Shown: positions 3,157 through 25,649, counted from the first letter of the stretch. The stretch: DNA of 41,912 nt from Escherichia phage Sortsne (NC_048178.1), one strand, 5' to 3'. Notes: generated from the sequence alone by a model not told the origin. Translations and numbers: made by a program.

Positions 3157-3169
3157 ATCACGATAGTAT
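3141..3169 (+). promoter_or_regulatory. sigma70-like promoter TTGTGA-N17-TAGTAT with ATCACGA motif in spacer
   Basis: Read directly from sequence; followed by a 5' hairpin and gene 3217. Confidence 0.4.
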
Positions 3170-3178
3170 TAAGTTGTC

Positions 3179-3197
3179 GCCGGGGAATGGCCCCGGC
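3179..3197 (+). promoter_or_regulatory. 5'-UTR hairpin GCCGGGG-AAUGG-CCCCGGC (boxB-like candidate)
   Basis: Perfect 7-bp stem, pentaloop AAUGG, about 10 nt after predicted transcription start. Confidence 0.4.
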
Positions 3198-3216
3198 AAT
3201 AACGGAGATTGAGACG

Positions 3217-3456
3217 ATGGCAAAATTAACAGTACGCATCACAAACGGTCAGGAACGCGGTCGCCAGTGGAATCACCACTTTAAAGCCACATCGGGCCAC
3301 GCCACTGTTAAGCGTTACCTGGACTGGAAAGCGGCGGAACTCACAGGCGAGGAGCCGGAAGTCGAGGACTACGTGGACGAGTTCACCACACGCGGCGAAG
3401 TCGAAGCACGTCGCATTATCCATCGTAACAACCTGCGCGCCGCTGAATACTACTAA
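3217..3456 (+). CDS. hypothetical protein
   Basis: Start refined to ATG at 3217 (GGAG RBS 9 nt upstream); the track start at 3187 lies inside a perfect 5' hairpin. Confidence 0.5.
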   Translation: MAKLTVRITNGQERGRQWNHHFKATSGHATVKRYLDWKAAELTGEEPEVEDYVDEFTTRGEVEARRIIHRNNLRAAEYY

Positions 3457-3460
3457 CCAG

Positions 3461-3498
3461 CCCGGCCCCTTCGGGGGCCATCCACCCAGGAGTCGAAG
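3461..3498 (+). repeat. conserved intercistronic element, copy 1 (hairpin GGCCCC-UUCG-GGGGCC plus CCCAGGAGTCGAAG leader)
   Basis: Near-identical to 16206-16245. Confidence 0.6.
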
Positions 3499-3876
3499 AT
3501 GTCAAAAATGATCGTTGTTACCCGCTGGCCTACTGCCGCCGACGCACAGCAAGACGCGGAGCGCGTGGCCTCACTCATTCGCGCCCATTCCTGCGTCCAG
3601 TCCATGCCGATCCGCGTTAACACATACGAGCGCGAGGAGAAGCTGGGCGGCGGGTTCGGCTACGTGCTTACATGCGGCCCGGTGTCGATAGTCTGCCGGA
3701 GCCTTACACGTTACACGGCCTGCTATTCCCTGCCGGAAGGTCCACGCGGAAACCATCGGGACGAGTTCGAGGCGGTCACGGCTGAGGCGGCGATCGATGA
3801 AATGCGGGAATTTCTGGAAGCGCGGATCGAACATGCCCGGCTCGCGCTGGCCGTACTGGCCGGGCCGGACTCATGA
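3499..3876 (+). CDS. hypothetical protein
   Basis: 125-aa ORF preceded by conserved hairpin plus CCCAGGAGTCGAAG leader. Confidence 0.5.
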   Translation: MSKMIVVTRWPTAADAQQDAERVASLIRAHSCVQSMPIRVNTYEREEKLGGGFGYVLTCGPVSIVCRSLTRYTACYSLPEGPRGNHRDEFEAVTAEAAIDEMREFLEARIEHARLALAVLAGPDS

Positions 3877-4094
3877 TCCCGGCGAAGGTGCAACGGAAAG
3901 CGAAGGCGATCCTCCACCTGTACGCCCAGAAGGAGGTCCAGCCCCGCAAGCTGGCCGGAGGTCTGGGCCTCGCGCTGGAGGTCGGTTATCGCTGGCGTCT
4001 CCTGTCGCGTGACAAGGGCGCAACGTGGGATCTGGTATCACACGAGCGCTACAACAAACTAACCAGGGGCAAAAAGCCCCGCACAATGAGGTAA
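3873..4094 (+). CDS. hypothetical basic protein
   Basis: 73-aa ORF, ATGA start/stop overlap with upstream gene; Lys/Arg-rich. Confidence 0.4.
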   Translation: MIPAKVQRKAKAILHLYAQKEVQPRKLAGGLGLALEVGYRWRLLSRDKGATWDLVSHERYNKLTRGKKPRTMR

Positions 4095-4099
4095 CTACA

Positions 4100-4396
4100 A
4101 TGCAAAAATATTACTATCTGGTAGAGGCTCACGGTCGCCAGGTGCTGGTCCGCAAGGGCGAAAGCGAAGAAGATCTCCCGGCGATCCAGTTCGTGACGCA
4201 CACGGACGACGGCGCGGAAATGTCGTTCGGCCTGAATTTTGAGCCGAAGGAAGGCTCCACCGAAGAAGCCGCCGAAGCGGACCGCGATCGCGCCTTCGAG
4301 AAGGAGGAAGAACTCCGCACTATGGCCGAAGCCTACGCGGAGAAGCTGATCGGATGTGCTACCGGGTTCGACGCTTTGCGCGCTTTGCAAGGCTAA
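4100..4396 (+). CDS. hypothetical acidic protein
   Basis: ATG at 4100 with GAGGT RBS 7 nt upstream (track ORF 4025 trimmed to this start). Confidence 0.45.
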   Translation: MQKYYYLVEAHGRQVLVRKGESEEDLPAIQFVTHTDDGAEMSFGLNFEPKEGSTEEAAEADRDRAFEKEEELRTMAEAYAEKLIGCATGFDALRALQG

Positions 4397-4420
4397 TCAA
4401 AACGTTATTCCATTCCTACT

Positions 4421-4441
4421 AAGGGGCCTTTGCGGCCCCTT
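4421..4441 (+). terminator. GC hairpin (weak terminator/attenuator) upstream of holin
   Basis: AAGGGGCC-TTTGC-GGCCCCTT hairpin, short T tract. Confidence 0.3.
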
Positions 4442-4494
4442 GATTCTACGTGCTACCCTTTAGCGGTTATTTAATTGTTAAAAGGGATCAGGCA

Positions 4495-4851
4495 ATGTCC
4501 GAACATACGACGCTCTGGCAATTGTTCCAGTTGTACCGGGTGGAGTTGGGTTATTCATTCATCGCGGCGTCTGTCGCGGTATTCCGTCACTGGCAATTAC
4601 GCCACCCATTCCGCGATATCGTAAGCGGCGGGGCCATCTGCGCGGCGGTGGCGTTCGGGATGAATAACATCCTGTCATTCTTTGGGGTCGATCATGGTAC
4701 GTGGGGTTATCTGGCGTCCGTGTTCCTGGGTTACGTGGGCGTGGAGACGGCGCTCGACTGGGCCAGCGAAAAGATCCCTTTCCTGAAAAAAATCCGCGCC
4801 ACCCCGGCGCATACTTCACCAGCGGAGGATCAGACCGATGGCAAAATTTAA
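4495..4851 (+). CDS. putative holin
   Basis: 118-aa protein with hydrophobic segments and charged C-terminus, immediately upstream of and overlapping the endolysin gene; position in lysis cassette. Confidence 0.5.
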   Translation: MSEHTTLWQLFQLYRVELGYSFIAASVAVFRHWQLRHPFRDIVSGGAICAAVAFGMNNILSFFGVDHGTWGYLASVFLGYVGVETALDWASEKIPFLKKIRATPAHTSPAEDQTDGKI

Positions 4852-5311
4852 GCTAAACGAACAGCGCCGCGCCTTTCTGGACGCGATCGCCTACTGCGAG
4901 GGGACCGACAACGGACGCCAGCAAACGCGAAACCACGGTTACGACGTGGTGGTGGGCGGCTCCCTGTTCTCCGACTATTCGAAGCATCCCGATCGCCTGG
5001 TGCGCCTGCGTCCGGGCCTCTCCTCCACGGCTGCTGGCCGCTACCAGTTGTTAAGCCGTTATTACGACGTGTACAAAAAACAGCTTGGCCTCCCGGACTT
5101 CGGGCCGGACAGCCAGGACCAGATCGCGCTCCAGCAAATCAGCGAGCGTAAAGCGCTGGAGGATATCGACGCGGGCCGGATCGAGTCTGCCGTGGCGAAG
5201 TGTAACAAGACGTGGGCCAGCCTGCCCGGCTCCCCTTACGGTCAGCATACCTACAGCATGGCCGTATTTCTGGAGCAATTCCGCAAGGCGGGCGGGAAGG
5301 TGGCCGCATGA
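4838..5311 (+). CDS. endolysin, lambda R-type lytic transglycosylase
   Basis: 157 aa; strong resemblance to lambda R as recalled (FLDAIAYCEGTDNGRQQTRNHGYDVVVGG...AGRYQLLSRYYD...WASLPG). Confidence 0.9.
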   Translation: MAKFKLNEQRRAFLDAIAYCEGTDNGRQQTRNHGYDVVVGGSLFSDYSKHPDRLVRLRPGLSSTAAGRYQLLSRYYDVYKKQLGLPDFGPDSQDQIALQQISERKALEDIDAGRIESAVAKCNKTWASLPGSPYGQHTYSMAVFLEQFRKAGGKVAA

Positions 5312-5829
5312 TCGCCGCCCTCCGGCTGTTCCTCTCGACTCACTGGCGCTTAGTGCTGCTGGCCGTTGTCGTGCTGCTGGCGCTGGGGGGATCTTTCTGG
5401 GCGGGCCACGAGTGGAGCGATCGCGCGTGGTCCAAACGCTGGGCGCAACGGGACGCGAACGACTCCTCCCAGGAAGCGAACGCACAAGCCGCCGCCCGTA
5501 TCATTGAACAGGGGCGAAACATCGCCCGCGAGGAGTCCGTAAAATATGCGAACGAACAGGCCGCAAAAGCTCGCGCCGCTGCTGCTGCTTCTGGTGCTGC
5601 CCTTGATCGGTTGCTCGAACGAGCCAGCAAGGAAGCCGCCCGACGCGAAGCCGCTGATCAGACCGCTGCCCTCGGAAGGGCGTCAGGGGAACAGACCGCC
5701 CGAATGTATTCCGACTTGCTCCGACGGACTGGAGAAGCTGCTCGACGGTATGCTGATATAGCGGAGGGGGCGATCACCGCTGGGGAGGTATGCGAAAGGA
5801 ATTACGACGCCGTGGAGCGTCAGCAATGA
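5308..5829 (+). CDS. i-spanin (Rz-like)
   Basis: N-terminal TM anchor then Ala/Arg/Glu-rich coiled-coil-like periplasmic region; directly after endolysin; contains embedded lipoprotein ORF. Confidence 0.7.
   Translation: MIAALRLFLSTHWRLVLLAVVVLLALGGSFWAGHEWSDRAWSKRWAQRDANDSSQEANAQAAARIIEQGRNIAREESVKYANEQAAKARAAAAASGAALDRLLERASKEAARREAADQTAALGRASGEQTARMYSDLLRRTGEAARRYADIAEGAITAGEVCERNYDAVERQQ
5546..5761 (+). CDS. o-spanin (Rz1-like), embedded in Rz in alternate frame
   Basis: 71-aa ORF wholly inside Rz; signal peptide with lipobox LIGC; proline-rich mature part. Confidence 0.65.
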   Translation: MRTNRPQKLAPLLLLLVLPLIGCSNEPARKPPDAKPLIRPLPSEGRQGNRPPECIPTCSDGLEKLLDGMLI

Positions 5830-5858
5830 GAAAGGGGCCTTGCGGCCCCTTTTTTTAT
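5829..5858. terminator. bidirectional intrinsic terminator between lysis cassette and Ig-like gene
   Basis: AAAGGGGCC-TTGC-GGCCCCTTT stem-loop followed by T7, A-rich on the other side; convergent gene ends. Confidence 0.8.
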
Positions 5859-6625
5859 GCTGCCGGATTAACCGTAACAGTACAGTGAATGGATTCGACC
5901 GTTTTCGGGGGGTTGGTGTTGCTGCTGGTGGCTACGCACCAGTATTCCCCGGCATCACCAGCGACCGGGGACGCTTTGGTGTAGGTCGCGGAGGTCGCCC
6001 CGGAGATCGGCGCGCCGTCCTTGTACCACTGGTAAGAGTACGGAGCGAGGCCCGTCTGAGGGTTCGCGGCCACTACCAGGGAGGCGGAGGTCCCGACGGT
6101 CCACGTCGCGCTCGCGGACAGGTTGGTGGACAGCGAGATCGCGACCTTCGTCCTCACGCGCTGAGAGTCCAGCGTCTGCCCGATCGAGTCGGTGATGGTC
6201 ACGAAGTAGTCCGCGTTATGGGTCGCTGCGGTGTAGTTCGAGATCGTCAGCGTGTCAGTCGTTGCGCCGCTGTAGCCGTTGGCGTTGGTGACGTTGCTCG
6301 TCTGCCCGCCGGAGATTTTCTTCCACTGGTAGGAGTAAGGAGGAACGCCATCAGCGGCCACCACTTTAAAGTCCTTACTGGTGCTAACCGGGACGTAAGT
6401 CGCGCCAGCGTCGCCAGCGGCCACGCCGGGGAGATCGGTCGTGAACTTGAGCGGCTTCGCCAGGTTCGGGTCGTACTCCATGTAAAACATACCAGTGGGA
6501 TCAAGCCCGGTCGGCTCGTCAGCCAGCCAGATCACGTCCTGCTGAGGGACTTCCGACGGGTCGGAGATCCGGGTGACTTTCCAGCCCAGGAGATCCGGGC
6601 GGTAGTAGCGATGCCAATAACTCAT
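5855..6625 (-). CDS. Ig-like domain protein (two tandem Ig-like repeats)
   Basis: Start refined to ATG at 6625 (GAGGA RBS); repeated PPYSYQWKK / APYSYQWYKDG motifs typical of bacterial Ig-like domains. Confidence 0.55.
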   Translation of the reverse strand: MSYWHRYYRPDLLGWKVTRISDPSEVPQQDVIWLADEPTGLDPTGMFYMEYDPNLAKPLKFTTDLPGVAAGDAGATYVPVSTSKDFKVVAADGVPPYSYQWKKISGGQTSNVTNANGYSGATTDTLTISNYTAATHNADYFVTITDSIGQTLDSQRVRTKVAISLSTNLSASATWTVGTSASLVVAANPQTGLAPYSYQWYKDGAPISGATSATYTKASPVAGDAGEYWCVATSSNTNPPKTVESIHCTVTVNPAA

Positions 6626-6699
6626 AATTTTGTCCTCATGGTGCGCCGTGTTATAGTTCCCCGGCATTGTAGATCATCTTTGAGCCGTAAACGAAAGGA

Positions 6700-6726
6700 G
6701 CCGCATTTTAAGCGGCCCTTTTTTTT
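6700..6726 (+). terminator. plus-strand-oriented terminator-like hairpin with T8
   Basis: GCCGC-ATTTTAA-GCGGC then CCTTTTTTTT; lies between two minus-strand genes. Confidence 0.35.
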
Positions 6727-6827
6727 CATAGTAGGGTAGTAACCCCGAAGCCAATTAAACCCCATACGGCGGCACTGGCTGCGATTACGCCCCAAATTAC
6801 ATAGCGGTGTCCGCGTAAGTCTTTCAT
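6726..6827 (-). CDS. small single-TM peptide (33 aa)
   Basis: Below track cutoff; ATG overlaps upstream stop (TGATG), GAGGGG RBS; translates MKDLRGHRYVIWGVIAASAAVWGLIGFGVTTLL. Confidence 0.3.
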   Translation of the reverse strand: MKDLRGHRYVIWGVIAASAAVWGLIGFGVTTLL

Positions 6828-7216
6828 CAGAATTTCCCCTCTTTCTTGAATTTTGCGATCCGCCCACGGAGAGCGGCGACGGTTTTCCCCAGCCAGTTAG
6901 CGACGTGCTTATGGGTCAGCCCGTCCGGCACTATGACGCCATGAGGTACGACGGCCACCAGTTCGTCCTCGTCCTGCTCCGTCAGTAACCCCTCATACCA
7001 GCGGGCCAGCTTGCGGTCCTCCTCCGTGGTCCACAGGGTGTACGTTTTACTATACGCCAGCGAGACGCCCAGGTGGTGGGCGCGGACCTGCATCTGGCGG
7101 AAGTTGCGCCCGATCTTTTTGGCGAGGTCCTTCGGCGGCATGGTCCCGGCGAGGCGCTCCAGTTCGGCGTCCTGCTCGTCTGTCCATCCGATAATCTTTG
7201 CGGTGACTTGGCTCAT
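6827..7216 (-). CDS. putative DNA-binding protein with two W-T-x-E-E-D repeats (GcrA/SANT-like)
   Basis: 129 aa; IGWTDEQDAELERL and LWTTEEDRKLARW repeats; assignment from motif recollection only. Confidence 0.4.
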   Translation of the reverse strand: MSQVTAKIIGWTDEQDAELERLAGTMPPKDLAKKIGRNFRQMQVRAHHLGVSLAYSKTYTLWTTEEDRKLARWYEGLLTEQDEDELVAVVPHGVIVPDGLTHKHVANWLGKTVAALRGRIAKFKKEGKF

Positions 7217-7476
7217 TTACTCCCCTTAAGGTGTCTTTTGTTTTTGGTGGTGGCGATCATTTCTTTGAGCGATGGACCGCCGTCGCTCCCTGGTACTACC
7301 CGGACCAGGTGCGGGTCCGGCTGGTGGAGGAAGATCTCACCCTCCGGGGTGGTGATCGATATGTCGGCGATCGCGTCCTTCCCGAATACCTGGGACACTT
7401 TGGCGATCATCGTGTCCAGGTTGGCGGCTTGCGCCGCCTCCCATACTTCGCGCCGGGTCCCCTGTTTACGCGCCAT
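7213..7476 (-). CDS. hypothetical protein
   Basis: 87-aa ORF, start/stop overlaps with neighbours in a coupled minus-strand operon. Confidence 0.4.
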   Translation of the reverse strand: MARKQGTRREVWEAAQAANLDTMIAKVSQVFGKDAIADISITTPEGEIFLHQPDPHLVRVVPGSDGGPSLKEMIATTKNKRHLKGSK

Positions 7477-7756
7477 ATGCTTTCCGAAGGGCGTCGTTAG
7501 CGTGGGCCATTGTCTCGCGGATCTCGCGCTTGGTGGCCTTCACCGCTTCCGGGCCAGCGGCCCACATACGGAGGCGGTTCTGGAGGCACTGCGCGTTAAA
7601 GGCCAGTGTCTGGGCCTGCGCCAGCATCAGCCAGCTTACGACCTTCGCGCGGTTCGGACGGGAGAAGATGGTCCCCATCTGATCGCCCCAGTATTTCGCG
7701 CGGAGGTCTGCCAGTGTTTCGCCGTTCTTGTTGGTGCGGATAGTTGCTGTATTCAT
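7466..7756 (-). CDS. hypothetical protein
   Basis: Start set at ATG 7756 (MNTATIRTNKNG...) with GAGGAGAC leader; first gene after promoter at 7790-7818. Confidence 0.4.
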   Translation of the reverse strand: MNTATIRTNKNGETLADLRAKYWGDQMGTIFSRPNRAKVVSWLMLAQAQTLAFNAQCLQNRLRMWAAGPEAVKATKREIRETMAHANDALRKAYGA

Positions 7757-7789
7757 CTTTCTGTCTCCTCGTGTTGGTGTGATAAAGAA

Positions 7790-7818
7790 TATAACAAAGG
7801 ATAAGTTTACCCGCAAGA
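7790..7818 (-). promoter_or_regulatory. sigma70-like promoter TTGCGG-N17-TATATT, flanked by ATCACGAAA and TTATCACA motifs
   Basis: Minus-strand reading; immediately downstream of an intrinsic terminator. Confidence 0.45.
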
Positions 7819-7837
7819 GGTTTTTTAATTATTTCGT

Positions 7838-7864
7838 GATAAAAGAGAAAAGGCCCCGGAGGGC
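7838..7864 (-). terminator. intrinsic terminator within early minus operon
   Basis: GGCCCTCCGGGGCC hairpin followed by TTTTCTCTTTT on minus strand; promoter 7790-7818 follows. Confidence 0.5.
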
Positions 7865-7869
7865 CTCGA

Positions 7870-8610
7870 TCAGAATGGGACGTTTGCCTGGTACACGGCG
7901 AGGGCGAAGCCTTCGGGGGTGGCGCTGCGGATGTTCTTCGTGCGGGTTGATGATCCTCCCAGCTTGGCCCATCCCGGATTGTTGGCGACTGCCGGGACTG
8001 GCTTATGGTCGGGCATGTTGAAAGCGCCGCCGCACCAGATCCCCGTCTGCTTCGGGTAGCTGTCCCGCGCCGGGTAGATCTCCGGGTAGAGGCTATGCTG
8101 GTGATCCTCCGGCAAGTAGCCGCCGAAGTGGTACGGGTGGAACCAATGATCGCAAGGTCGCCACATCGTGGAGAGCCGGGAGATCTTCGGGTTCTCCAGC
8201 ATCCAGGGGATAGCCTCCTTGTCGTCATATCCGCCGCTCTCATACGCGGCAAAGATCGCCACCTGCTCGACCATCTTCGCCAGCGCCACAGCCTTCTCCT
8301 GGAAGCGCGGATCTTTCTTCCGCTTCGCTTCCCACCAGCGCGCCCCGGTACAGGTAAGATCGGTACACTCGGCGAACGACGCCACGAACATAACGCCGGG
8401 GCCGACCTCCTCCGCAATGCGGAGCGCTTCGGCTTCGGTGTTGTCGGCGTCGAACATGCGGCCCACGCGGACCAGGTTCGGCTCCTCCGGGTCGCGGTGG
8501 ATGCCGTCCGGGTGCTGGCCGTCATACATCCAGCATTCATAGCCGCCCTTAAGCCACGGATCAACCATGATCCGGGTAAGGTTGAATAAGAAAATCGCCT
8601 TACCCGCCAT
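7870..8610 (-). CDS. hypothetical protein (replication-module associated)
   Basis: Start refined to ATG at 8610 (MAGKAIF...) adjacent to upstream stop; no confident motif. Confidence 0.45.
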   Translation of the reverse strand: MAGKAIFLFNLTRIMVDPWLKGGYECWMYDGQHPDGIHRDPEEPNLVRVGRMFDADNTEAEALRIAEEVGPGVMFVASFAECTDLTCTGARWWEAKRKKDPRFQEKAVALAKMVEQVAIFAAYESGGYDDKEAIPWMLENPKISRLSTMWRPCDHWFHPYHFGGYLPEDHQHSLYPEIYPARDSYPKQTGIWCGGAFNMPDHKPVPAVANNPGWAKLGGSSTRTKNIRSATPEGFALAVYQANVPF

Positions 8611-8611
8611 A

Positions 8612-9211
8612 TTAACCTCTCGCTGGCATGATGATAAACGTAGCCGGACCGCAAGGCGTTTCGAACTCCACGCGGAGCGGCTGATCCTTCGCGGCGAAGT
8701 GGAGAGAAGCAAACGGCATCTTAGCGCCGAACTTTTTCCCCAGCTTCTCAATCAGGCCCAGATACTCGGAGGCCACCTTGATCTCCGTGATAGCCTTCGC
8801 GCCTGCCTTCTGCCCGGAGATCAGGCGATCCACGTCAGGATAGCGAGCGTCCACGACGTCCACCGTCCCGACCGCGCCGCGCATCTTGCGGAAGTCATAC
8901 TCCGCGAGGTCCTTCGGCTTATCGGCGATCGCGCTGGTCCAGTAGACGATCCCGGCTTCCGTATCAATGACCGCCGTCGAAAAGGCCCGGCCACTGGGGG
9001 GAGTCGAGATCTTGAGGATAACGCCCTCCTCCGGGGCGTTTACCAGGCCGTGGGCGCTGGAGAGCGCCACGTGACCGTTAGAGGACTGGATCGTGTTGCC
9101 TTTCAGGTGGACGGCGTTCAGATAATAGCGGACGTCGTTCTTTGCCTGGGTCAGCGCGTGGGCGCGTAATGCTTCTACGGGTGCATAAATAATCATCTTT
9201 GAGCCTTCCAT
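8612..9211 (-). CDS. truncated DnaN-like sliding-clamp protein
   Basis: DVRYYLNAVHL resembles the DVRYYLNG motif of DNA polymerase III beta clamp, and C-terminal FIIMPARG resembles the clamp C-terminus; about half the length of DnaN. Confidence 0.45.
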   Translation of the reverse strand: MEGSKMIIYAPVEALRAHALTQAKNDVRYYLNAVHLKGNTIQSSNGHVALSSAHGLVNAPEEGVILKISTPPSGRAFSTAVIDTEAGIVYWTSAIADKPKDLAEYDFRKMRGAVGTVDVVDARYPDVDRLISGQKAGAKAITEIKVASEYLGLIEKLGKKFGAKMPFASLHFAAKDQPLRVEFETPCGPATFIIMPARG

Positions 9212-9861
9212 TAAATCAGCGTCTTGCCATCAAAAATCATTTCCGCCTGCGTGACGTACTCCGTCTTGATCTCGCCACGTTTGCGCGGCTTGATAACGAA
9301 GATCACGGACGGCTTGCTGTTCTTCTTCCCGGCGATCTTCGTGTCGGCGCGCACAAAGGCCACACGGCCCGACGTCTCGCCGTCGCTGGTGATGTGAACG
9401 ACCAGACTCCCGGCGTCCAGCGCCTTCTTAAACCACGCCGTGGAGGCGTCGGAGTTCAGGAGGAGGACGGTCGTCACGCCGCGCGCCTTCGCCTGCTGGA
9501 CGGCCTTCTCCACCCAGGGAAGCGGGTCGGCGTATGGCGGGTTACACCATGCCAGCCCGTTCTCGGCTCCCCACTCCACGCCGTCGGCCAGCGCGTCCGT
9601 TGCTTCGTCCAGGTAGACGTCGCAAAGGGCGTTTTCCTTCTCCGCTGCCACGTCGATCCCGAACGCGCCGAAGCGCTTCACGCACCAGGCGAACAGCCAC
9701 GGCGGGGTCTGCCACTTCTGGCGGATGTTATCCGGCGTAACGCTGCCTTTGAAGCGACGCCCGGAAACCTTCACGGCGTCCTCCACCTGCGCCACCACTG
9801 CCGCCTCGCCGCCGATGGCTTCCACCGCGTCGATCGTTACTTTGTCGTTTTCGTCTTTCAT
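9211..9861 (-). CDS. dam: phage Dam-type DNA N6-adenine methyltransferase
   Basis: WQTPPWLF and NPPY (WCNPPYADP) motifs characteristic of phage N6A methyltransferases. Confidence 0.85.
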   Translation of the reverse strand: MKDENDKVTIDAVEAIGGEAAVVAQVEDAVKVSGRRFKGSVTPDNIRQKWQTPPWLFAWCVKRFGAFGIDVAAEKENALCDVYLDEATDALADGVEWGAENGLAWCNPPYADPLPWVEKAVQQAKARGVTTVLLLNSDASTAWFKKALDAGSLVVHITSDGETSGRVAFVRADTKIAGKKNSKPSVIFVIKPRKRGEIKTEYVTQAEMIFDGKTLI

Positions 9862-9869
9862 GTTGCGCC

Positions 9870-10307
9870 TTATTGTCCAGTTGATCCGAAGCCGCCGGAG
9901 CGGGTGCTGGTTGCTTCCGGGAGGGTGGTCACTTCGTCGAGTTCGACCTGTTCGATCGGGACGAGCATAAACTGGGCCACGCGGTCGCCCTTCTTGACCT
10001 GCGGCAAGCGGCCAGGGATATCACAATGTAACTTCACCATTACCTCGTCGCGGTAGTCGCTATCGATCACGCCGACGCAATTAGACAGGCGGGTGTTCTG
10101 GTTGAAACCCATCCCGGATCGGGAGTAGATCAGCATGGCCCAGCCTTCGGGGATAGCTACGGCCCAGCCAGTCCGGCACAGGATCGAGCCGTCGCCCTGC
10201 GCTTCTGCGGTCAGCGCGTAAACGTCCATACACGCGGAGCCGTCGGTGGCATAGGTGGGTAACTTAAAGTTTTCATCAGTGGTTAAGCGTTTGATCTTGA
10301 GTTCCAT
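9870..10307 (-). CDS. dut: dUTP diphosphatase
   Basis: Conserved dUTPase motifs (YSRSG, GVIDSDYRDEV, C-terminal RSGGFGSTG); GGAG RBS. Confidence 0.85.
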   Translation of the reverse strand: MELKIKRLTTDENFKLPTYATDGSACMDVYALTAEAQGDGSILCRTGWAVAIPEGWAMLIYSRSGMGFNQNTRLSNCVGVIDSDYRDEVMVKLHCDIPGRLPQVKKGDRVAQFMLVPIEQVELDEVTTLPEATSTRSGGFGSTGQ

Positions 10308-10456
10308 TTTGTACTCCAGTTGTTGTCTACGTGGTAAAGTTAACGGATTCGTGATTTTATTTCAAGTCAATTTGATGATAAATTATTAAATGTCTCTTTC
10401 GTCTGGTTCCCAGGCGTTACAAATTTAGCGCCGCTGGTATCTCGTGCGCTCCCATC

Positions 10457-10482
10457 GGCCCCACGTGCGGGGCCTTTTTTTT
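10457..10482 (+). terminator. plus-strand-oriented intrinsic terminator in primase-dUTPase intergenic region
   Basis: GGCCCCACGTGCGGGGCC hairpin followed by T8 on the plus strand; U-tract faces opposite to the flanking genes. Confidence 0.5.
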
Positions 10483-11293
10483 ACCCGAACGCCCCGCAAT
10501 AGTCCCCGCCCCATCTGGCGCGCCCGGTCTTGTCATAGGCATACATCCAGGCCTCGTCCGGGTCGGTGCATACCATGCGAAGCTCCCGATCGCCGTCGTA
10601 TTCGAGGGCCACCTGTACCGCGTTACGTGGCGTAAAGGTTAGCCATACCTCGGCCCCGGTGCGAGCGGCCACATTCACGGCATGGCCTGGATCGGCCACA
10701 AGATACGCCGTCTTGCCGTCGGGTACTGGGTGGATCAGGCCATAGGCTCCCCACGTCCGGCCACCAGCGGCGAACGCCACCGAACGGTCCGGCGCGATCT
10801 TCGCCACGTTGCAGGGCATCCCCCCAGACGCGCGGACGCATGGAACATACAGGAAGCCGTCGCGCATCGTGCCTTTAGCCATGACCTTCTCCACGTCCTC
10901 CGGCGTCAGGCTGTAGTCCTCGCCCGGCCTGTCCTGCATCCTGGCTAACTTCTTCGCCTCGCGGACGATCGTCTCCCGCTTCTCCGGGGTGAGTCCGCCT
11001 ATCCAGTCGCCCAGGTCGTTGATCGCCTCGTTGAATGGCTGGTTACGCGAGGCCATAAACCAAAACATGCCATCACGAGCGCCACCGCACGAGCCGGAGC
11101 AATAGGCGAAGCCCTCGCCCCGCTTATTGGCCTGCTTATGGCCCCATCGGAAACGGTCGGAGCCGCCACAGATCGGGCAAGCCTGGTGCTTCCCGTTGAA
11201 CGCCTTCCGGTCCCATCCGCACAGATCGAGGAGCGCCTGTTCCCACTTGCCGGGCATAGCGCCTAACACGTCCTCTTTTTTGTAAATTGCCAT
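10481..11293 (-). CDS. DNA primase (zinc-ribbon plus TOPRIM)
   Basis: N-terminal CPICGGSDRFRW...YCSGSCG primase-type zinc ribbon; C-terminal TOPRIM-like acidic motifs (YLVADPG...CTDPDEA). Confidence 0.7.
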   Translation of the reverse strand: MAIYKKEDVLGAMPGKWEQALLDLCGWDRKAFNGKHQACPICGGSDRFRWGHKQANKRGEGFAYCSGSCGGARDGMFWFMASRNQPFNEAINDLGDWIGGLTPEKRETIVREAKKLARMQDRPGEDYSLTPEDVEKVMAKGTMRDGFLYVPCVRASGGMPCNVAKIAPDRSVAFAAGGRTWGAYGLIHPVPDGKTAYLVADPGHAVNVAARTGAEVWLTFTPRNAVQVALEYDGDRELRMVCTDPDEAWMYAYDKTGRARWGGDYCGAFG

Positions 11294-11294
11294 C

Positions 11295-11323
11295 TTGCCC
11301 TCCGATAACTTCCCGTATACTAT
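11295..11323 (+). promoter_or_regulatory. sigma70-like promoter TTGCCC-N17-TACTAT for the plus-strand recombination operon
   Basis: In divergent primase/helicase intergenic region; TATCACGAAAGCG motif at start site. Confidence 0.45.
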
Positions 11324-11346
11324 ATCACGAAAGCGTTAAGAAACAA
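11319..11346 (-). promoter_or_regulatory. candidate divergent promoter TTGTTT-N16-TATAGT for primase operon
   Basis: Minus-strand reading; -10 overlaps the plus-strand -10 (TACTATA palindrome). Confidence 0.3.
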
Positions 11347-11360
11347 GAAAGGATAAAAGA

Positions 11361-13397
11361 ATGATTGAGACACTGGAGCGCCAGATCGAGGCGCTGGACC
11401 GGGACGCCATTCTCCGCACGTTGGGCGACCTCCCGGTGACTCCATACGATCACCAGTTCGTCGCCTATGAGGCTTGCCAGCAAGCGATCCGCAAGTACCC
11501 CGGCCCGGTTATCGTGGATGCCGCCGTTTCGGCGGGCAAGACCATCATGATCGCCATGCTGGCGCGCCGTATTCGTGATCTGGGCTTCCCGGCCATAATC
11601 CTGTCCCGTCAGGCGGAGATCATCGATCAGGACTTTGAGGAGTTGAAAAACTTCGGCGTCCCATCGTCGATCTACTGCGCCGGGCTTAACCGGAAGTCGG
11701 CCCACTTCCCGATCGTGGTCGGCTCGGAGGGTACGGTGATCGGTGGCCTCCAGCCCGGTAAACATCTGGCCGACTATGCCCCGCTGTTCCTGCTGATCGA
11801 TGAATGCCACCACGTGAACATAGAGGACCTGATCCGCTCTGAGACGCGAAAAGTCCCGGAGTATCTCATGGAGAACGGGGAGATCGTGCTGAATGGCTTC
11901 GGGGAGCCGGAGCAAATCGGCGAGCATATCGGCGAGACTTACGAGGAAATGATCGAGGCTGGCCGCGCCGCGTATACAGTCATTATCCGCACGTTACAAA
12001 AGCGTTGCCGGGAGCGGTACGGCAAAGAGCTACGCATTATCGGTTATACCGGGACGCCTTACCGTGGCGTGGAGTCCATCGTCCAGCCTAACCTAAAAGA
12101 GCCGGGCTTCTGGCGGAAGATCGTCACGAACATTTCAACGGAATATCTGGTAAGCGTTGGCGCGGTGGTCCCGACTCGCTTCGGCGTGTCCGATCTCCAT
12201 TACGACCTCGACCAGTGGCGATCGACGGGCGAGGATGGCATTAAGGAGTTCAGCGACGCGGATATGGCCGCGATGCAAGCCCAGATCCTCAAAGACAAAA
12301 AGCTCACGCAAAAGATCATGGCGGAGGTCTACGCCATCACCCAGGACCGCCTCGGCGTTCTGGTGACGTGCGCCGGGGTTCGCCACTGCAAGGAAGCCGC
12401 CGAAGCGCTGCCGCCCGGTACGCCTTACGCCATCATTACCGAAGATACCGGACCGAAGAAACGCCGCGATATCCTGCGCGACGCCAATACGGGCAAAATC
12501 AAATTTATCTTCCAGGTTAACGCGCTAACGACGGGCGTTAACGTGCCATTCTGGGACACGTCCGTGATCCTGCGGAAGATTGGCTCCCTCACCCTGTTAA
12601 CCCAGCTTTTGGGCCGTGGTATGCGCATCCTTAAGCCGTTCCACATCGCCGCCGGGTACACGAAGGAGGATCACCTGGTGCTCGACTATGCCGGGACGCT
12701 GGACGAGTTGGGATCGCTGTACTTCTCCCCGCTGCTGGAGGCTTACCAGCATAACGCCGACGAGGCAAAGGGCGCGCTCGTTGTACCGTGTCCGAAGTGT
12801 AAGGCCGCTGGGCGGAAAGTCCTTAACGGCGAACATGCTCGCCGCTGCCGCTACGTCGATCCCGATACTAAAATCCGGTGCGATCATTTCTTCCAGTTCA
12901 TCACCTGCGACGACTGGAAGGACGCCAACGGCAAGACCATCACACAAAAGGGGTGCGGGGCGAAAAATGATATCGTCGCGCGGATCTGCCGCTGCTGCGG
13001 TAACAGCCTGATCGATCCGAACGAAAAACTATCCCACACGGCATACAGCAAGGACGACTATTGCAACGTGCGCGGCTTCGCCATTGAGCCAGCGCGAGGG
13101 CGTGGCGGGCTGGCCTTCCGGTACGATCTGGAAAAGGACGGCGTGGAGTTCAGGGCGTGGCAAGTCTTTTGGCCGGGCAGCGAATCCCCCCAGGCGCGGA
13201 AGGAGTGGGAGTTCAACGGGATCGGTAAGCACGTTCTGGACGCTGGCAAGCGCCGCGAGATCAAGAAATGCCGCACCGTGGAGGCCGTACTGGCTTACGC
13301 TCCGTACTTCATGGCCCCGCTGAAAGTTACCCACCGCAAGATCGGCAAGGGTAAGGACGTAATCACCAACAAAATTTTCATTAACGAGGACTTTTAA
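11361..13397 (+). CDS. SF2 DEAD/DEAH-type DNA helicase with C-terminal zinc ribbon
   Basis: Walker A AAVSAGKT, DECH box (LLIDECHHV), helicase C-terminal motifs, CPKCKAAG...C Zn ribbon. Confidence 0.8.
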   Translation: MIETLERQIEALDRDAILRTLGDLPVTPYDHQFVAYEACQQAIRKYPGPVIVDAAVSAGKTIMIAMLARRIRDLGFPAIILSRQAEIIDQDFEELKNFGVPSSIYCAGLNRKSAHFPIVVGSEGTVIGGLQPGKHLADYAPLFLLIDECHHVNIEDLIRSETRKVPEYLMENGEIVLNGFGEPEQIGEHIGETYEEMIEAGRAAYTVIIRTLQKRCRERYGKELRIIGYTGTPYRGVESIVQPNLKEPGFWRKIVTNISTEYLVSVGAVVPTRFGVSDLHYDLDQWRSTGEDGIKEFSDADMAAMQAQILKDKKLTQKIMAEVYAITQDRLGVLVTCAGVRHCKEAAEALPPGTPYAIITEDTGPKKRRDILRDANTGKIKFIFQVNALTTGVNVPFWDTSVILRKIGSLTLLTQLLGRGMRILKPFHIAAGYTKEDHLVLDYAGTLDELGSLYFSPLLEAYQHNADEAKGALVVPCPKCKAAGRKVLNGEHARRCRYVDPDTKIRCDHFFQFITCDDWKDANGKTITQKGCGAKNDIVARICRCCGNSLIDPNEKLSHTAYSKDDYCNVRGFAIEPARGRGGLAFRYDLEKDGVEFRAWQVFWPGSESPQARKEWEFNGIGKHVLDAGKRREIKKCRTVEAVLAYAPYFMAPLKVTHRKIGKGKDVITNKIFINEDF

Positions 13398-13399
13398 GC

Positions 13400-13846
13400 A
13401 TGGGAACGATTAACAAAAAAGTGGAGTTCTGGCGCGAGTTTTACCCGGAGCATAAGGCGACCTACAGCCCGAAAGAGGAGGTAGAACAGAAGATCACGGC
13501 GTCCCACATCCAGTACAATTACCCGGACCTTCTGGCCTTCCATCCGGTCAATGAGTCCGGCGGGTCCGGTGATGCCGCCTACGGGGCGAAGTTAAAGGCG
13601 CTGGGCCGACTGGCCGGGATCTCTGACTGGGTGATCCTGGAGCCGCGCGGCGGGTATGGCTTCGCGCTGATCGAGTTGAAACGGAACGACCGGAGCAAAT
13701 CGCGCCTTAACCCGGAGCAAAAGGAGATCCTGGAGAAAGCGCGGGCGCGTGGTGGCTGGACGGCGGTCGCATGGGGTGCGGACGCCTTCGAGGTCGCGCT
13801 GGATTATTATCTCTCTCTACCGCTTGCAAATATCACGAAAGCGTGA
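13400..13846 (+). CDS. VRR-NUC domain nuclease
   Basis: ISDWVILEPRGGYGFALIELKRND matches the PD-(D/E)XK core of VRR-NUC proteins. Confidence 0.7.
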   Translation: MGTINKKVEFWREFYPEHKATYSPKEEVEQKITASHIQYNYPDLLAFHPVNESGGSGDAAYGAKLKALGRLAGISDWVILEPRGGYGFALIELKRNDRSKSRLNPEQKEILEKARARGGWTAVAWGADAFEVALDYYLSLPLANITKA

Positions 13847-13852
13847 TTTAAT
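13824..13852 (+). promoter_or_regulatory. promoter TTGCAA-N17-TTTAAT with perfect 16-bp palindrome ATCACGAAAGCGTGAT in the spacer
   Basis: Palindrome at 13832-13847 overlaps the VRR-NUC stop codon; precedes exonuclease gene. Confidence 0.45.
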
Positions 13853-13887
13853 TACTCTCACGTTATCCACACGAGAGAGACAAAATT

Positions 13888-14928
13888 ATGTTAGCCAATG
13901 GCCTGATCCCGGCGCTGCCATCTTACGAGGTGGCCGCGTCAATCTTCGTAGACGCCAGATCGTCGGAAGAACTCACAAACGAACAGTACCACGAGGACGA
14001 GGTATATATTACCGGGTCCAGCCTTTGGACCATTTACAGCAAATGCCCGGCGGCGTGGCGCTTCCAGAAGGTGCAAGAGGCGAAAGCGAAAAAGCTCAAT
14101 TCCGCCCAGAAGCCGCTCACCTTCGGGACCACTTCCCACACGATGTTACTTGAGCCGGACCGCTTCGAGCGCGAGTTTTTCCGCCTGCCTAACCCGGAGG
14201 ACTTCAAAGACCTGATCACCTCGATCAAGGGGATGGAGTCATGGCTTAAGGCGCGCGGCCAGAAAGGCTACAGCAACAAAAAGCCGGAGGAGTTGATCGC
14301 CATGTGTCGCGCGATCCAGCAACCGGACGAAGTGCTTAACATCTGGCACGAGATCGAGGCCGAAGCGGTGAAGGAAGCCAACGGGCGCGAGATCGTCCCG
14401 GCGAAGGACTGGGACCGCGTTCACTCCATGCGCGACGTTCTGCTGGTAAACCACAATTACCGCCGGATCATTGAGACGGGCGTCCCGGAGTTGTCGCTGT
14501 TCTGCATTATCGACGGCGTTCCCGTTAAGGTCCGCCTGGACCGTGTGACCGATATCGGCGAGATCATCGACTACAAGACCACGCAAAGCGCGGAGCCGGA
14601 GAAGTTCGGGCGACTGGCTCATGACCTCGGCTACTGGTGCAAGATGGCGCTACAACATGATTGTTTTAAGCTGGCATACGAGCGCGATCCGGCGGGGACT
14701 AAGTTACTCGTCCAGGAAAAGGACGAGCCGTGGCTGGCGCTCATGAATCGCCTTACCCCGGAGCAAATCATGATCGGGCGCGCCCAGTACAAGACCGCGC
14801 TCCAGCTTTACAAGCATTGCCGCGAGGCCGACGTGTGGCCCGCTTACGCAAACGGCCAGGAGGAGATCCCCCTCGCCACTCCGATGTATTTACAGCAACG
14901 TTACAAAGAATATTTTAAAGAGGTGTAA
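13888..14928 (+). CDS. PD-(D/E)XK family exonuclease (recombination exonuclease partner of Erf)
   Basis: LDRVTD...EIIDYKTTQS motif of RecB/YqaJ-type nucleases; immediately upstream of Erf. Confidence 0.6.
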   Translation: MLANGLIPALPSYEVAASIFVDARSSEELTNEQYHEDEVYITGSSLWTIYSKCPAAWRFQKVQEAKAKKLNSAQKPLTFGTTSHTMLLEPDRFEREFFRLPNPEDFKDLITSIKGMESWLKARGQKGYSNKKPEELIAMCRAIQQPDEVLNIWHEIEAEAVKEANGREIVPAKDWDRVHSMRDVLLVNHNYRRIIETGVPELSLFCIIDGVPVKVRLDRVTDIGEIIDYKTTQSAEPEKFGRLAHDLGYWCKMALQHDCFKLAYERDPAGTKLLVQEKDEPWLALMNRLTPEQIMIGRAQYKTALQLYKHCREADVWPAYANGQEEIPLATPMYLQQRYKEYFKEV

Positions 14929-14930
14929 TC

Positions 14931-15650
14931 ATGGAATTTTCAACGGATAAAGGTCAGATCGTCCCGGCAATGGTTAAGGCTCGCCTGGCGATGAAAAGCG
15001 AAGTTAAAAAGAATACCGAAAACCGCCATCTGGGTAACTGGTACGCGAATTTAGAGAGTTTCCTGGACACTATCCGCCCGGCGCTGGAAGCCAACGGCCT
15101 GATCGTTATCCAGTCGCCGCTCGCCACGGTAGAAAAAGCGAATATGCTCGTCCTGCCGCTGGAGACGATGATCCTCCATGAGTCCGGCGAATACATGACC
15201 GCCGTTATGGAAATGCCGATCAGCTTCGGCAAGGGCGCACAGGCCCACAGCGTCGGATCGGCTATCACGTATGCCCGCCGTTACCACATTTCCGCGCTGT
15301 TCGGTGTGGCCCAGTCCGACGACGACGGTAACGCCACCAGAAAATCCGCCCGCCAGTGGATCGGGGATCTGGAGTTGATCGAGGACCTCGACAAGCTCAA
15401 AGAAGCCGTGGCCCACGTGGTCCACACGCTGGCCGATGATAGCGCGAGCGTGAAGGTCGTCCGCGAGTGGCACATTACGCGCCAGGCCCAGCTTAAGGCC
15501 GCGACCGCCAACGGCTTTAATCCCGCTTCTGTTGTGAAGAAGAAAAAAGCCGCCGATAATGCTCCGGCACAAGAACAGCCCGCCGTCGTAACGGAGCCGG
15601 AAGTGGACGCCCCGGCGGTGGAACAAAAACCGAATATTGAGGACTTCTAA
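14931..15650 (+). CDS. erf: Erf-family single-strand annealing protein
   Basis: [18 protein letters not shown] motif typical of the Erf family; followed by SSB. Confidence 0.8.
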
Positions 15651-15652
15651 GC

Positions 15653-16198
15653 ATGGCATCACGCGGCGTAAACAAGGTGATTCTGGTCGGCAACCTGGGA
15701 CAAGATCCCGAAGTGCGTTATATGCCGTCCGGCGGAGCGGTGGCGAACATCACGATCGCCACGTCCGAAAGCTGGCGCGATAAGCAAACGGGCGAACAAA
15801 AGGAGGTCACGGAGTGGCATCGGGTCGTATTGTTCGGGAAGCTGGCCGAAGTCGCCGGGGAGTACCTGCGCAAAGGGTCACAGGTTTACATCGAGGGCCA
15901 GCTTAAGACGCGCAAGTGGACGGACCAGCAAGGCGTCGAGAAGTACACGACGGAGGTCGTCGTGAACGTCGGCGGTACGATGCAAATGCTCGGCGGGAAA
16001 CGTGAAGGCGGTCAGTCTGGGGGGAATGGTGGCCCGACTCACTCCGGCGGTGGCAATTCTCGCCAATCTCCGGGCCGTAGCGCGCCGCAAAACCAAAATA
16101 CGGGCAAGGGTAGCGGGTCAGGGTCTGCGCCTCGTGGTGGCGCTTCTGGGGCGTCTAACGAGCCGCCGCAAGATTTCGACGATGATATCCCGTTTTAA
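15653..16198 (+). CDS. ssb: single-stranded DNA-binding protein
   Basis: N-terminal OB-fold ([35 protein letters not shown]), Gly-rich linker and C-terminal acidic tail DDDIPF. Confidence 0.9.
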
Positions 16199-16205
16199 TT
16201 AACTA

Positions 16206-16245
16206 ACAGGCCCCTCCGGGGGCCAGATCCTCCCAGGGGTCGAAG
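16206..16245 (+). repeat. conserved intercistronic element, copy 2 (hairpin GGCCCC-UCCG-GGGGCC plus CCCAGGGGTCGAAG leader)
   Basis: Near-identical to 3461-3498. Confidence 0.6.
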
Positions 16246-16686
16246 ATGAAACAATGCTCAATCTGTCGAACCATGAAGCCGTTAGAGGACTTCCACAGGA
16301 ACAAGCGCCAGAAGGACGGAAGGGATCGGCGCTGCCGGACGTGTAAGAGCGCCTATTGCAAGGAGCGCTATCACGGAGATCCAGACCATAAGGAGAAGAT
16401 CATCGCCCAGGTGAAGGAGTACCAGGCGGGGCCGGGGCGGGAGAAGTCGAACGCCACAAAGTCGGCCTATCATTCGAAGCATCCGAAGAAGCGACACGCC
16501 CACAATCTGGTCCGTAACGCTCTGAGGCGCGGAGAGCTAACGAGGGGGCCGTGTGAGGTCTGCGGCGTCGAGAAGGTAGTGGGCCACCATGACGACTACG
16601 ATCGACCGTTAGACGTGCGCTGGCTCTGCGAGAAGCATCACAAAGCCTGGCATCTGGTCCACGGTGAAGCGCTTAATCCCGATTGA
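16246..16686 (+). CDS. Cys/His-rich zinc-binding protein (possibly HNH-like)
   Basis: CSICR...CRTCK and CEVCG...HHDDY...WLCEKHH clusters; preceded by conserved hairpin plus leader. Confidence 0.45.
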   Translation: MKQCSICRTMKPLEDFHRNKRQKDGRDRRCRTCKSAYCKERYHGDPDHKEKIIAQVKEYQAGPGREKSNATKSAYHSKHPKKRHAHNLVRNALRRGELTRGPCEVCGVEKVVGHHDDYDRPLDVRWLCEKHHKAWHLVHGEALNPD

Positions 16687-16711
16687 CGTATATCACTAAT
16701 TAATTAATAAT
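16683..16711 (+). promoter_or_regulatory. promoter TTGACG-N17-AATAAT upstream of Cro-like HTH gene, with TATCAC motifs
   Basis: TATCACTAATTAATTAATAATCACGG spans spacer and start region. Confidence 0.45.
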
Positions 16712-16729
16712 CACGGAGACGTTAACAAA

Positions 16730-16957: not shown

Positions 16958-16958
16958 T

Positions 16959-17204: not shown

Positions 17205-17221
17205 ACCGGAATCGAGAGACG

Positions 17222-25634: not shown

Positions 25635-25649
25635 AAGATCCTCCCAGGG

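Follow-up and report, generated by a model that had tools for sequence, protein, structure and literature searches.

Two near-identical hairpin and ribosome-site junctions in Escherichia phage Sortsne and the clade-wide DNA motif within them

Two short intergenic sequences on the plus strand of Escherichia phage Sortsne (NC_048178.1), here called site A and site B, are nearly identical and lead into two different genes. What keeps such a junction almost the same at two places of one phage genome? An original prediction, made from the sequence of the phage, described a duplicated intercistronic element of about 40 bp and suggested a mobile or selected regulatory cassette. We compared the sites with each other, with the genomes of related phages and with collections of viral sequences. 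Each copy is a composite of separable modules, namely a hairpin, the motif RATCCNCCCAG, and a Shine-Dalgarno sequence followed by the spacer TCGAAG and ATG. The middle module is one copy of a motif that is spread along the whole genome, mostly inside genes.

The window, i.e., the whole stretch of DNA that was analyzed, is 41,912 bp long, has 60% G+C and consists of long plus- and minus-strand gene blocks; the same length and G+C content are published for Escherichia phage Sortsne (table, PMC7552041). Its nucleotide identity is about 80% with the podophages IME279 and sortkaff (Sortsnevirus), Kc237, and IME_EC2, Lumpael and sortsyn (Murrayvirus). As predicted, sites A and B belong to two different plus-strand gene blocks (1953-5829 and 11361-17204), which are separated by a minus-strand block. 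The proteins encoded downstream of them are indeed unrelated (BLASTP E 6.5), and the gene after site B is the Cys-rich one of the prediction, an endonuclease VII/HNH-like gene.

Composition and conservation of the junctions

Alignment of 3464-3501 with 16209-16248 gives 35 matches among 38 aligned bases and one 2-nt indel. The hairpin parts (16 nt) differ only once, in the loop (UUCG vs UCCG). The linker between hairpin and tail is A at site A and AGA at site B, and the tail together with the start codon, ATCC[A/T]CCCAGG[A/G]GTCGAAG-ATG, is identical at 20 of 22 positions. A faint similarity continues upstream (ACTAAC). The predicted string of site A was found exactly as quoted at 3461-3498; the second string begins at 16209 instead of the predicted 16206, a slip of 3 nt. 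The near-identity itself stands, and it reaches beyond the generic hairpin, so that the refuting outcome named in the prediction, a likeness confined to that hairpin, did not occur.

The likeness could be imagined as accidental, between two generic terminator-like hairpins that each happen to precede a ribosome site, since the hairpin itself is generic (see below). The hairpin pattern has two exact matches in the window, and seven with up to three mismatches vs 2.8 expected. The tail pattern gives three matches with up to three mismatches vs 0.23 expected, two of them exact, and the full composite pattern, with two matches in the window, did not occur in any of 100 dinucleotide-preserving shuffles. 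Together with the conservation in relatives described below, these numbers refute a chance likeness, and we treat its probability as negligible.

The search for the element in related phages, which the original prediction had proposed, found the composite at both sites not only in the window but also in IME279, sortkaff, Kc237, IME_EC2, Lumpael, sortsyn, the IMG/VR contig L011 and, more distantly, Skarpretter. The flanking genes are orthologous; in particular, gp50 and gp51 of Skarpretter are orthologs of the genes starting at 3187 and 3499. The junctions thus have orthologous positions in four lineages of genus level (Sortsnevirus, Murrayvirus, Kc237 and Skarpretter), and therefore both are old and stable residents. 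Of the suggested "mobile or selected regulatory cassette", selection is borne out, and recent mobility of these two copies is not.

The modules part company in other relatives. C130_2 and Kc166B keep the hairpin after ssb, with the motif and tail absent there, and in Kc237 and Skarpretter the same hairpin carries another leader, AUAACCGGAGUAA. The cassette is therefore not one unit.

The hairpin is the generic module. At least 119 stretches of IMG/VR viral contigs contain the pattern CCGGCCCC-N4-GGGGCCAU, usually between a stop codon and a Shine-Dalgarno sequence with ATG, and thus the same hairpin is found in more than 100 unrelated viral contigs. Its loops there are mostly UUCG or GCAA, and a hand tally gave UNCG or GNRA in 41 of 71 contexts. 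Hairpin and motif together were found in IMG/VR only in clade members, besides chance matches lacking motif enrichment. In one unrelated contig, L109 (IMGVR_UViG_3300037963_003942), two hairpin copies lie 373 nt apart (10066-10085 and 10439-10458), each followed by the identical leader CACGUCCGGGAGGACAAC-AUG and ahead of different genes, so duplication of a hairpin with its leader also occurs outside this clade. The window itself has another family of repeated leaders: CCAACCAACGAGAGAGACAARAC-ATG occurs on the minus strand at 31398-31427, 38981-39010, 41019-41048 and 37695-37720 and on the plus strand at 13868-13887, often after a GGCCCC-GCAA/UGUG-GGGGCC hairpin and ahead of unrelated genes.

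In the relatives, the loops at the two sites show all four UNCG variants (UUCG, UCCG, UACG and UGCG), plus CACG and one 6-nt loop. The stem is invariant, except that in 5-bp stems one C has been lost jointly with the G it pairs with. Such a pattern is what preservation of a UNCG tetraloop would produce. The loops are closed as C(UUCG)G at site A and C(UCCG)G at site B, which places them in the UNCG tetraloop class. Across intercistronic G+C hairpins with 4-nt loops in five clade genomes, the sense strand reads UNCG or GNRA in 25 of 38 cases and the antisense strand in 2 of 38. The hairpin is thus a member of the class of UNCG-capped intercistronic hairpins.

Neither site has a sense-strand intrinsic terminator: the G+C-rich hairpin is there, and the 3' U-tract is lacking. 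The 8 nt after the stem contain one T at site A and two at site B vs five to seven at canonical terminators of the same genomes. Some clade hairpins do carry U-tracts and are canonical terminators; those of sites A and B are of the U-less kind. After ssb of C130_2, AUUUUGU follows the orthologous hairpin and makes it terminator-like, and hairpin B was flagged as terminator-like in its antisense reading. A promoter scan of 1-18000 gave no sigma-70-like -35/-10 promoter at 3440-3500 or 16190-16246, in agreement with direct reading. Rfam gave no match at gathering score, and nothing at either site at E up to 1. A weak second hairpin over the Shine-Dalgarno sequence of site B (Table 1) was considered as a conserved device for its sequestration and rejected, as it is present only in site B of the Sortsne-type sequence, absent at site A and not found in Murrayvirus.

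A motif along the whole genome

A search with GATCCWCCCAGGRG and up to two mismatches gave 11 matches in the window vs 1.1 expected, and ATCCNCCCAG alone has 18 copies. The core TCCNCCCAG occurs 31 times vs 2.4 expected from base composition, i.e., it is enriched about 13-fold, and all of its one-base variants are rare (0-2 copies each). An unbiased scan pointed to the same sequence: its most over-represented 9-mer is TCCCCCCAG, with 14 copies vs 0.46. The logo of the motif is R-A-TCC-N-CCCAG (RATCCNCCCAG), and the flanks carry no further information.

Only three of the 31 core copies are not fully intragenic. The other 28 use all six reading frames, encode unrelated peptides and lie 13 times in sense and 15 times in antisense relative to transcription; over all copies, 19 are on the plus strand and 12 on the minus strand. 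Thus the tail core ATCCNCCCAG is not an intercistronic signal as such, and this part of the original prediction fails. Shuffling synonymous codons within genes keeps 7.25 ± 1.8 copies (maximum 12 in 200 shuffles), and shuffling codon order keeps 5.7. The use of all frames and the codon shuffles rule out a peptide or codon artefact. At orthologous sites in relatives, the eight fixed positions are 90% conserved vs about 77% for the flanks and N varies freely, while some copies have been gained or lost. Because all six frames are used and the motif is kept through synonymous sites and conserved at orthologous positions, it is maintained by selection at the DNA level.

The first nine genomes compared contain 18-37 copies each, C130_2 contains 16 and STP9 17, where about two are expected in each (1.8 in STP9). 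Kc166B and C130_2 keep the motif genome-wide and have no composite at all. There is no enrichment in the controls, i.e., P22 (0 copies), the T1-like phage vojen (0) and 50 kb of E. coli K-12 (2 vs 1.7 expected), so the motif is not common to enterobacterial phages in general, nor does it belong to the host. Searches of the literature for the motif strings returned no relevant description, and the papers on these phages do not mention the motif. It is an undescribed motif, organized in pairs and strongly selected at the DNA level, of a podophage group that includes Sortsnevirus, Murrayvirus, Skarprettervirus and Hungariovirus.

Presence and absence of proteins did not single out a partner of the motif, and the apparent outlier, STP9, is itself a clade member with the motif. 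A 116-aa protein encoded at 7466-7816 (minus strand), with no Pfam or PHROG family, is confined to this clade (13 records among 50,697 phage records) and is a candidate clade-specific factor; other proteins are likewise clade-confined. The STP9 record (OR754315.1, "Stutzerimonas phage STP9", UNVERIFIED_ORG) has most genes in common with this enterobacterial phage clade, as well as its excess of GATC, and its host assignment looks doubtful.

The copies are arranged in a peculiar way. Along the genome, a minus-strand copy is almost always closely followed by a plus-strand copy, forming a divergent pair with a gap of 81-773 bp in the window, and minus-minus neighbors are rare. The gaps from plus to minus copies have medians of about 1.9-2.2 kb, or 3.3-3.5 kb in Skarpretter and C130_2. 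Taken over the clade, the members of a pair are 50-800 bp apart and pairs return every 2-3 kb, in the window about every 2 kb. Compared with 6- and 7-mers of similar copy number, the pairing has an empirical P of at most 0.002 in the window, IME_EC2, Kc166B and Skarpretter, and of 0.019 in C130_2. In STP9, five divergent gaps measure 81-248 bp and all other gaps at least 1,328 bp. The spacing is also more even than random (coefficient of variation 0.64-0.81). The copy at site B is the plus member of a divergent pair whose partner lies in ssb (16017-16025); the copy at site A is single and fills what would otherwise be a 3-kb gap. Two further copies (25639 and 40341) show CUGGGAGGA as a Shine-Dalgarno sequence on the minus strand, and so intergenic copies seem to have been made to do double duty.

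With this layout, one may hypothesize that a DNA end entering from a long interval would meet the nearest copy from the 3' side of TCCNCCCAG, which is the geometry of an active Chi, but only 43% of the genome lies between correctly facing copies (summed plus-to-minus gaps). We tentatively suggest, as an idea more probably wrong than right, that the tail is one copy of a polar, clade-specific signal read by a DNA translocase or helicase-nuclease (a "private Chi" or self-mark, or else nick or priming sites), and that the two copies beside the hairpins couple this system to the expression of the nuclease and toxin-module genes. The copies might instead be nicked, serve in priming or bind a looping protein. 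The motif is not Chi, KOPS or a DnaA box, as the sequences differ, and true Chi is separately enriched with another layout. The window contains 16 copies of Chi, GCTGGTGG, vs 2.4 expected, in long same-strand domains (plus at 5924, 7320, 40057, 40708 and 41040; minus from 8332 through 39173), with orientation switches near 7.3-8.3 kb and 39.2-40.1 kb. This domain layout may mirror where the physical genome ends lie or which way the DNA is replicated or packaged.

About half of the motif copies start with GATC, which is itself abundant: 475 copies in the window vs about 151 expected, and 407-524 in every clade genome, as compared with 62 in P22 and 293 in vojen. A phage-encoded Dam methylase lies at 9211-9861.

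Table 1. Modules of the two junctions, adjoining genes and remaining core motif copies in the window (the 31 core copies are the rows of the last group plus 3481-3489 and 16228-16236)
Feature	Position	Strand	Remarks
Site A
TAA stop of upstream 89-aa gene	3454-3456	+	gene 3187-3456, phrog_33147; unknown function, gp05-like
Hairpin A, GGCCCC-UUCG-GGGGCC	3464-3479	+	6-bp stem, UNCG tetraloop, no U-tract after; fold -14.4 kcal/mol, ensemble frequency 0.99
Motif copy ATCCACCCAG	3480-3489	+	clade-wide motif; core TCCNCCCAG 3481-3489
Shine-Dalgarno AGGAG	3488-3492	+	overlaps 3' end of motif, 6 nt ahead of ATG; direct reading
Spacer TCGAAG	3493-3498	+	same at both sites; ATG 3499-3501
Downstream gene	3499-3876	+	125 aa, no known family
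Site B
TAA stop of ssb	16196-16198	+	gene 15653-16198
Hairpin B, GGCCCC-UCCG-GGGGCC	16209-16224	+	fold -15.4 kcal/mol, ensemble frequency 0.89
Motif copy GATCCTCCCAG	16226-16236	+	clade-wide motif; core 16228-16236
Weak second hairpin GAUCCU-CCCA-GGGGUC	16226-16241	+	over the Shine-Dalgarno sequence; -6.7 kcal/mol
Shine-Dalgarno AGGGG	16235-16239	+	direct reading
Spacer TCGAAG	16240-16245	+	ATG 16246-16248
Downstream gene, endonuclease VII/HNH-like	16246-16686	+	Cys-rich, 146 aa; phrog_2340, E 3e-40
Other motif copies
Motif copy TCCGCCCAG	211-219	+	
Motif copy	1704-1712	-	pairs with 2314 copy
Motif copy	2314-2322	+	inside gene
Motif copy	5383-5391	-	in spanin gene; 81-bp pair with 5464, kept as far as Skarpretter, C130_2 and STP9
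Motif copy	5464-5472	+	partner of 5383 copy
Motif copy	7954-7962	+	
Motif copy	8994-9002	-	window-specific
Motif copy	9509-9517	+	
Motif copy	10726-10734	-	in primase gene; 93-bp pair with 10819
Motif copy	10819-10827	+	in primase gene
Motif copy	12808-12816	-	in helicase gene
Motif copy	13185-13193	+	in helicase gene
Motif copy	14101-14109	+	
Motif copy	16017-16025	-	inside ssb; divergent partner of site B copy, 211 bp away
Motif copy	18830-18838	+	
Motif copy	21317-21325	-	
Motif copy	21730-21738	+	
Motif copy	22809-22817	+	
Motif copy	24866-24874	-	
Motif copy	25639-25647	+	intergenic; reverse complement CUGGGAGGA is Shine-Dalgarno of minus-strand gene starting at 25634
Motif copy	27272-27280	-	
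Motif copy	27987-27995	+	kept at orthologous position in relatives
Motif copy	30139-30147	-	
Motif copy	32607-32615	-	in portal gene
Motif copy	32919-32927	-	in portal gene; 178-bp pair with 33097
Motif copy	33097-33105	+	in portal gene
Motif copy	35197-35205	+	in large terminase gene
Motif copy	38017-38025	+	
Motif copy	40341-40349	+	minus strand reads CCUGGGAGGAUCUG-AUG just after a hairpin

Proposed working of the junctions and its alternatives

The gene after site A ends in a 4-nt overlap with a gene (3873-4094) for a 73-aa protein with a ParE-like toxin domain (PF24732, E 7e-19). The two may form a toxin-antitoxin-like pair in a lytic phage.

We propose that each copy is an intercistronic junction of three separable modules in a polycistronic plus-strand operon, in which an mRNA attenuator or stabilizer hairpin and a ribosome site would be joined by a DNA-level motif copy in the spacer; we consider this reading about as probable as its negation. 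The 6-bp G+C stem with its UNCG loop would form in the mRNA just past the upstream stop codon and would serve as a leaky attenuator, as a protector of the upstream 3' end, or both, i.e., as transcript punctuation. Expression would step down from an abundantly needed gene (ssb or the gp05-like gene) to a potentially harmful one (the nuclease gene or the pair ending in the ParE-like toxin). This role of the hairpin is suggested by its position, its loop chemistry, the U-tract of C130_2 and general knowledge of intercistronic hairpins. The motif copy would be part of the genome-wide function, placed in the only non-coding room available; the motif is not specific to gene starts, and here it would partly double as the 5' flank of the Shine-Dalgarno sequence. 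AGGRG with its 6-nt spacer and ATG makes an ordinary, well-spaced translation start. The sites would be near-identical in this genome through their common modules and through a combination of a Murrayvirus-type site A with a Sortsnevirus-type site B.

The last point agrees with the distribution of variants. Murrayvirus and the window have the spacer TCGAAG at site A, the Sortsnevirus group has it at site B, and the 125-aa protein of the window is 90% identical to its IME_EC2 counterpart. From this comparison, site A of the window and its downstream gene are of Murrayvirus type and site B is of Sortsnevirus type, and part of the near-identity within the genome thus reflects mosaic ancestry.

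Several observations weigh against the proposed reading. Attenuation or stabilization by the hairpin is suggested by analogy, a U-less hairpin is a poor intrinsic terminator, and the invariant stem permits no covariation support. If the motif were just a passenger in free space, one would not expect its N to be A throughout at site A and T throughout at site B, whichever the genus, nor the spacer after it to be self-similar within genomes (TCGAAG at both sites in Sortsne, CACGAGG at both in Skarpretter). Moreover, intergenic copies are about twice as common as the non-coding fraction predicts, which hints at a regulatory use of some of them.

These same facts (the site-specific N, the likeness of spacers within a genome and the two-fold intergenic excess) make a factor-controlled checkpoint the main rival. 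Here a protein or complex that recognizes RATCCNCCCAG throughout the genome would bind the copy 1-3 nt past the hairpin and gate the nuclease and toxin-module genes; it could act as a DNA roadblock that turns the U-less hairpin into a conditional terminator, or bind the mRNA and occlude the Shine-Dalgarno sequence. Hairpin and motif are neighbors at both sites throughout four genus-level lineages; this holds even for Skarpretter, whose Shine-Dalgarno sequence stands apart from the motif, and N is fixed at these sites though it drifts elsewhere. In C130_2, moreover, the orthologous hairpin has a U-tract where other genomes have the motif. But the factor is putative, and a 20-nt spacer nearly forces the two modules to be adjacent. 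Against a checkpoint also stand the 28 of 31 copies that are intragenic and lack orientation bias relative to transcription, and the motif kept genome-wide in Kc166B and C130_2, where the composite is missing. On balance we find a checkpoint doubtful. A conventional promoter-terminator cassette, in which the hairpin would end upstream transcription and the tail would hold a downstream promoter, is very improbable: it fits the intergenic position, the G+C-rich hairpin and the terminator-like antisense reading of hairpin B, but neither site has a sigma-70-like -35/-10 pair or a sense-strand U-tract, and the tail is only 19-21 nt long and occupied by the motif and the Shine-Dalgarno sequence.

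It is also conceivable that hairpin-leader sequences at gene borders persist as homology patches for gene swaps and insertions, as was proposed for the PeSL (promoter-early stem-loop) cassettes of T4-type phages (PMC2839356). Between IME279 and L011, identity at site A is 96% through the cassette, about 55% from ATG and 98% from the start of the ParE-like gene, i.e., one gene has been swapped for another exactly between the ATG of the cassette and the next gene start. In Kc237 an extra gene is bracketed by two copies of CCCGGCCCCTGCGGGGGCCAT. The AUAACCGGAGUAA leader is 90% identical over 40 nt between Kc237 and Skarpretter, although its flanks and downstream genes are unrelated. This second cassette, CCCGGCCCCUGCGGGGGCCAUAACC(C)GGAGUAA, lies at 3704-3743 in Kc237 and at 36107-36147 in Skarpretter, two different genera, and its flanks are at background identity (53-57%). 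Contig L109, with its two hairpin-leader copies ahead of different genes, points in the same direction. The comparison, which covers a small sample of genomes, indicates that hairpin-leader cassettes mark borders of gene replacement and exchange in this phage group, so that the link to gene exchange in the original prediction holds for such cassettes. That recombination is what the junctions are selected for seems unlikely, however: their role at borders may result from conservation, both sites in the window have stayed in place over long divergence, and 20-40 nt offer little length for homologous exchange to be efficient. The preferred reading remains the intercistronic hairpin and ribosome site with a genome-wide motif in the spacer between them.

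As a separate observation, IME279, sortkaff and C130_2 have an unrelated gene in place of the 125-aa gene.

Neighboring features and comparison with known systems

Some other features of these genomes deserve mention. Terminators of the form AAAGGGGCC-loop-GGCCCCUUUUUUU lie at 5829-5865 and 17224-17260, at convergent block junctions, and at 28192-28228, between two minus-strand genes; a weak Rfam match to STnc50 (E 0.1, 5821-5890, minus strand) is probably only the 5829 terminator. GGCCCC-ACGUGC-GGGGCC followed by eight T (10457-10474) is a strong terminator read on the strand opposite to the surrounding genes. Near the start of the window, at 73-96, there is a perfect 10-bp hairpin, ATACCCCCCC-TTTA-GGGGGGGTAT, in a TATATA context. 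C130_2 has a hairpin and a motif copy within its 284-bp terminal repeat. The sole repressor-type candidate in the window is a 75-aa XRE-family protein (16730-16957).

The duplicated junction alone is of modest interest, as a further case of phages reusing hairpin and ribosome-site cassettes at gene borders; it helps in annotation and in the study of mosaic exchange, and it is of use as a compact part for insulating expression. The motif means more. Its enrichment, protection at synonymous sites, clade limits and divergent pairs imply a machine that reads sequence along the whole phage chromosome. As these phages are lytic coliphages growing on E. coli K-12, the motif is directly testable; codon-optimizing or recoding of their genomes could erase its signal.

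The closest published relatives of the junction are the PeSL cassettes (Arbiol et al. 2010, PMC2839356; PMC4122927). They are likewise short repeated intergenic cassettes with the order stop codon, G/C-rich stem-loop, Shine-Dalgarno sequence and ATG, and they stand ahead of unrelated genes at borders of gene insertions and replacements (in our case in a small sample). However, the defining feature of a PeSL is a strong sigma-70 promoter, and sites A and B have none; its stem-loop is an effective terminator, whereas the hairpins of sites A and B have no U-tract; nor is a genome-wide intragenic motif known in PeSLs. Hairpins of the C(UUCG)G or UNCG type on the sense strand were described in phage T4 transcripts (Tuerk et al. 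1988, PMC279771, as cited and re-analyzed in PMC7165471). Those hairpins share with ours the extra-stable UNCG-capped G+C stem and the sense-strand specificity. They differ in that the hairpin stands alone, with no conserved tail, and their function in T4 is also loosely defined. The T4 UUCG hairpins are reportedly intercistronic, too.

The SAS and extended SAS (ESAS) of cluster K mycobacteriophages (PMC3203893) are asymmetric repeats that contain or abut a Shine-Dalgarno sequence a few bases ahead of ATG, sometimes with an inverted repeat before them. They are conserved ahead of unrelated genes, and in neither system is the function established. Nearly all SAS, however, stand at gene starts in one orientation, whereas only 2 to 4 of the 31 Sortsne copies are at starts and the rest are intragenic and fall on either strand. 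Stoperators of cluster A mycobacteriophages (PMC6550527, PMC9283540) resemble the motif as asymmetric sites with about 30 copies per genome, spread along the whole phage genome. Unlike the motif, they follow the direction of transcription and are binding sites for the immunity repressor of temperate phages; the Sortsne copies have no such bias, form divergent pairs and belong to apparently lytic phages. In sum, the junction is like a PeSL minus its promoter and like SAS and ESAS in layout, and it departs from PeSLs in its promoter, from terminators in the U-tract, from SAS in the position and the orientation of copies and from stoperators in their orientation relative to transcription.

Boundary sequences at gene junctions of lambdoid phages are also short and conserved and fall where mosaic exchange junctions occur, as the cassettes described here do, but no hairpin or genome-wide motif is known to define them. 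Chi (GCTGGTGG), KOPS and DNA uptake sequences are over-represented polar DNA words. The motif is similar to them in being over-represented in all frames, kept via synonymous sites, asymmetric, non-random in orientation and spacing, and absent from unrelated genomes. It differs from Chi in sequence, being TCCNCCCAG and not the GCTGGTGG of enterobacterial RecBCD, and in layout, as true Chi is separately enriched in a domain-like arrangement, and it agrees with KOPS and uptake sequences in neither sequence nor layout. To our knowledge, divergent pairs have not been described for Chi, KOPS or uptake signals. Each of these signals, like the stoperators, has brought a part of DNA biology to light.

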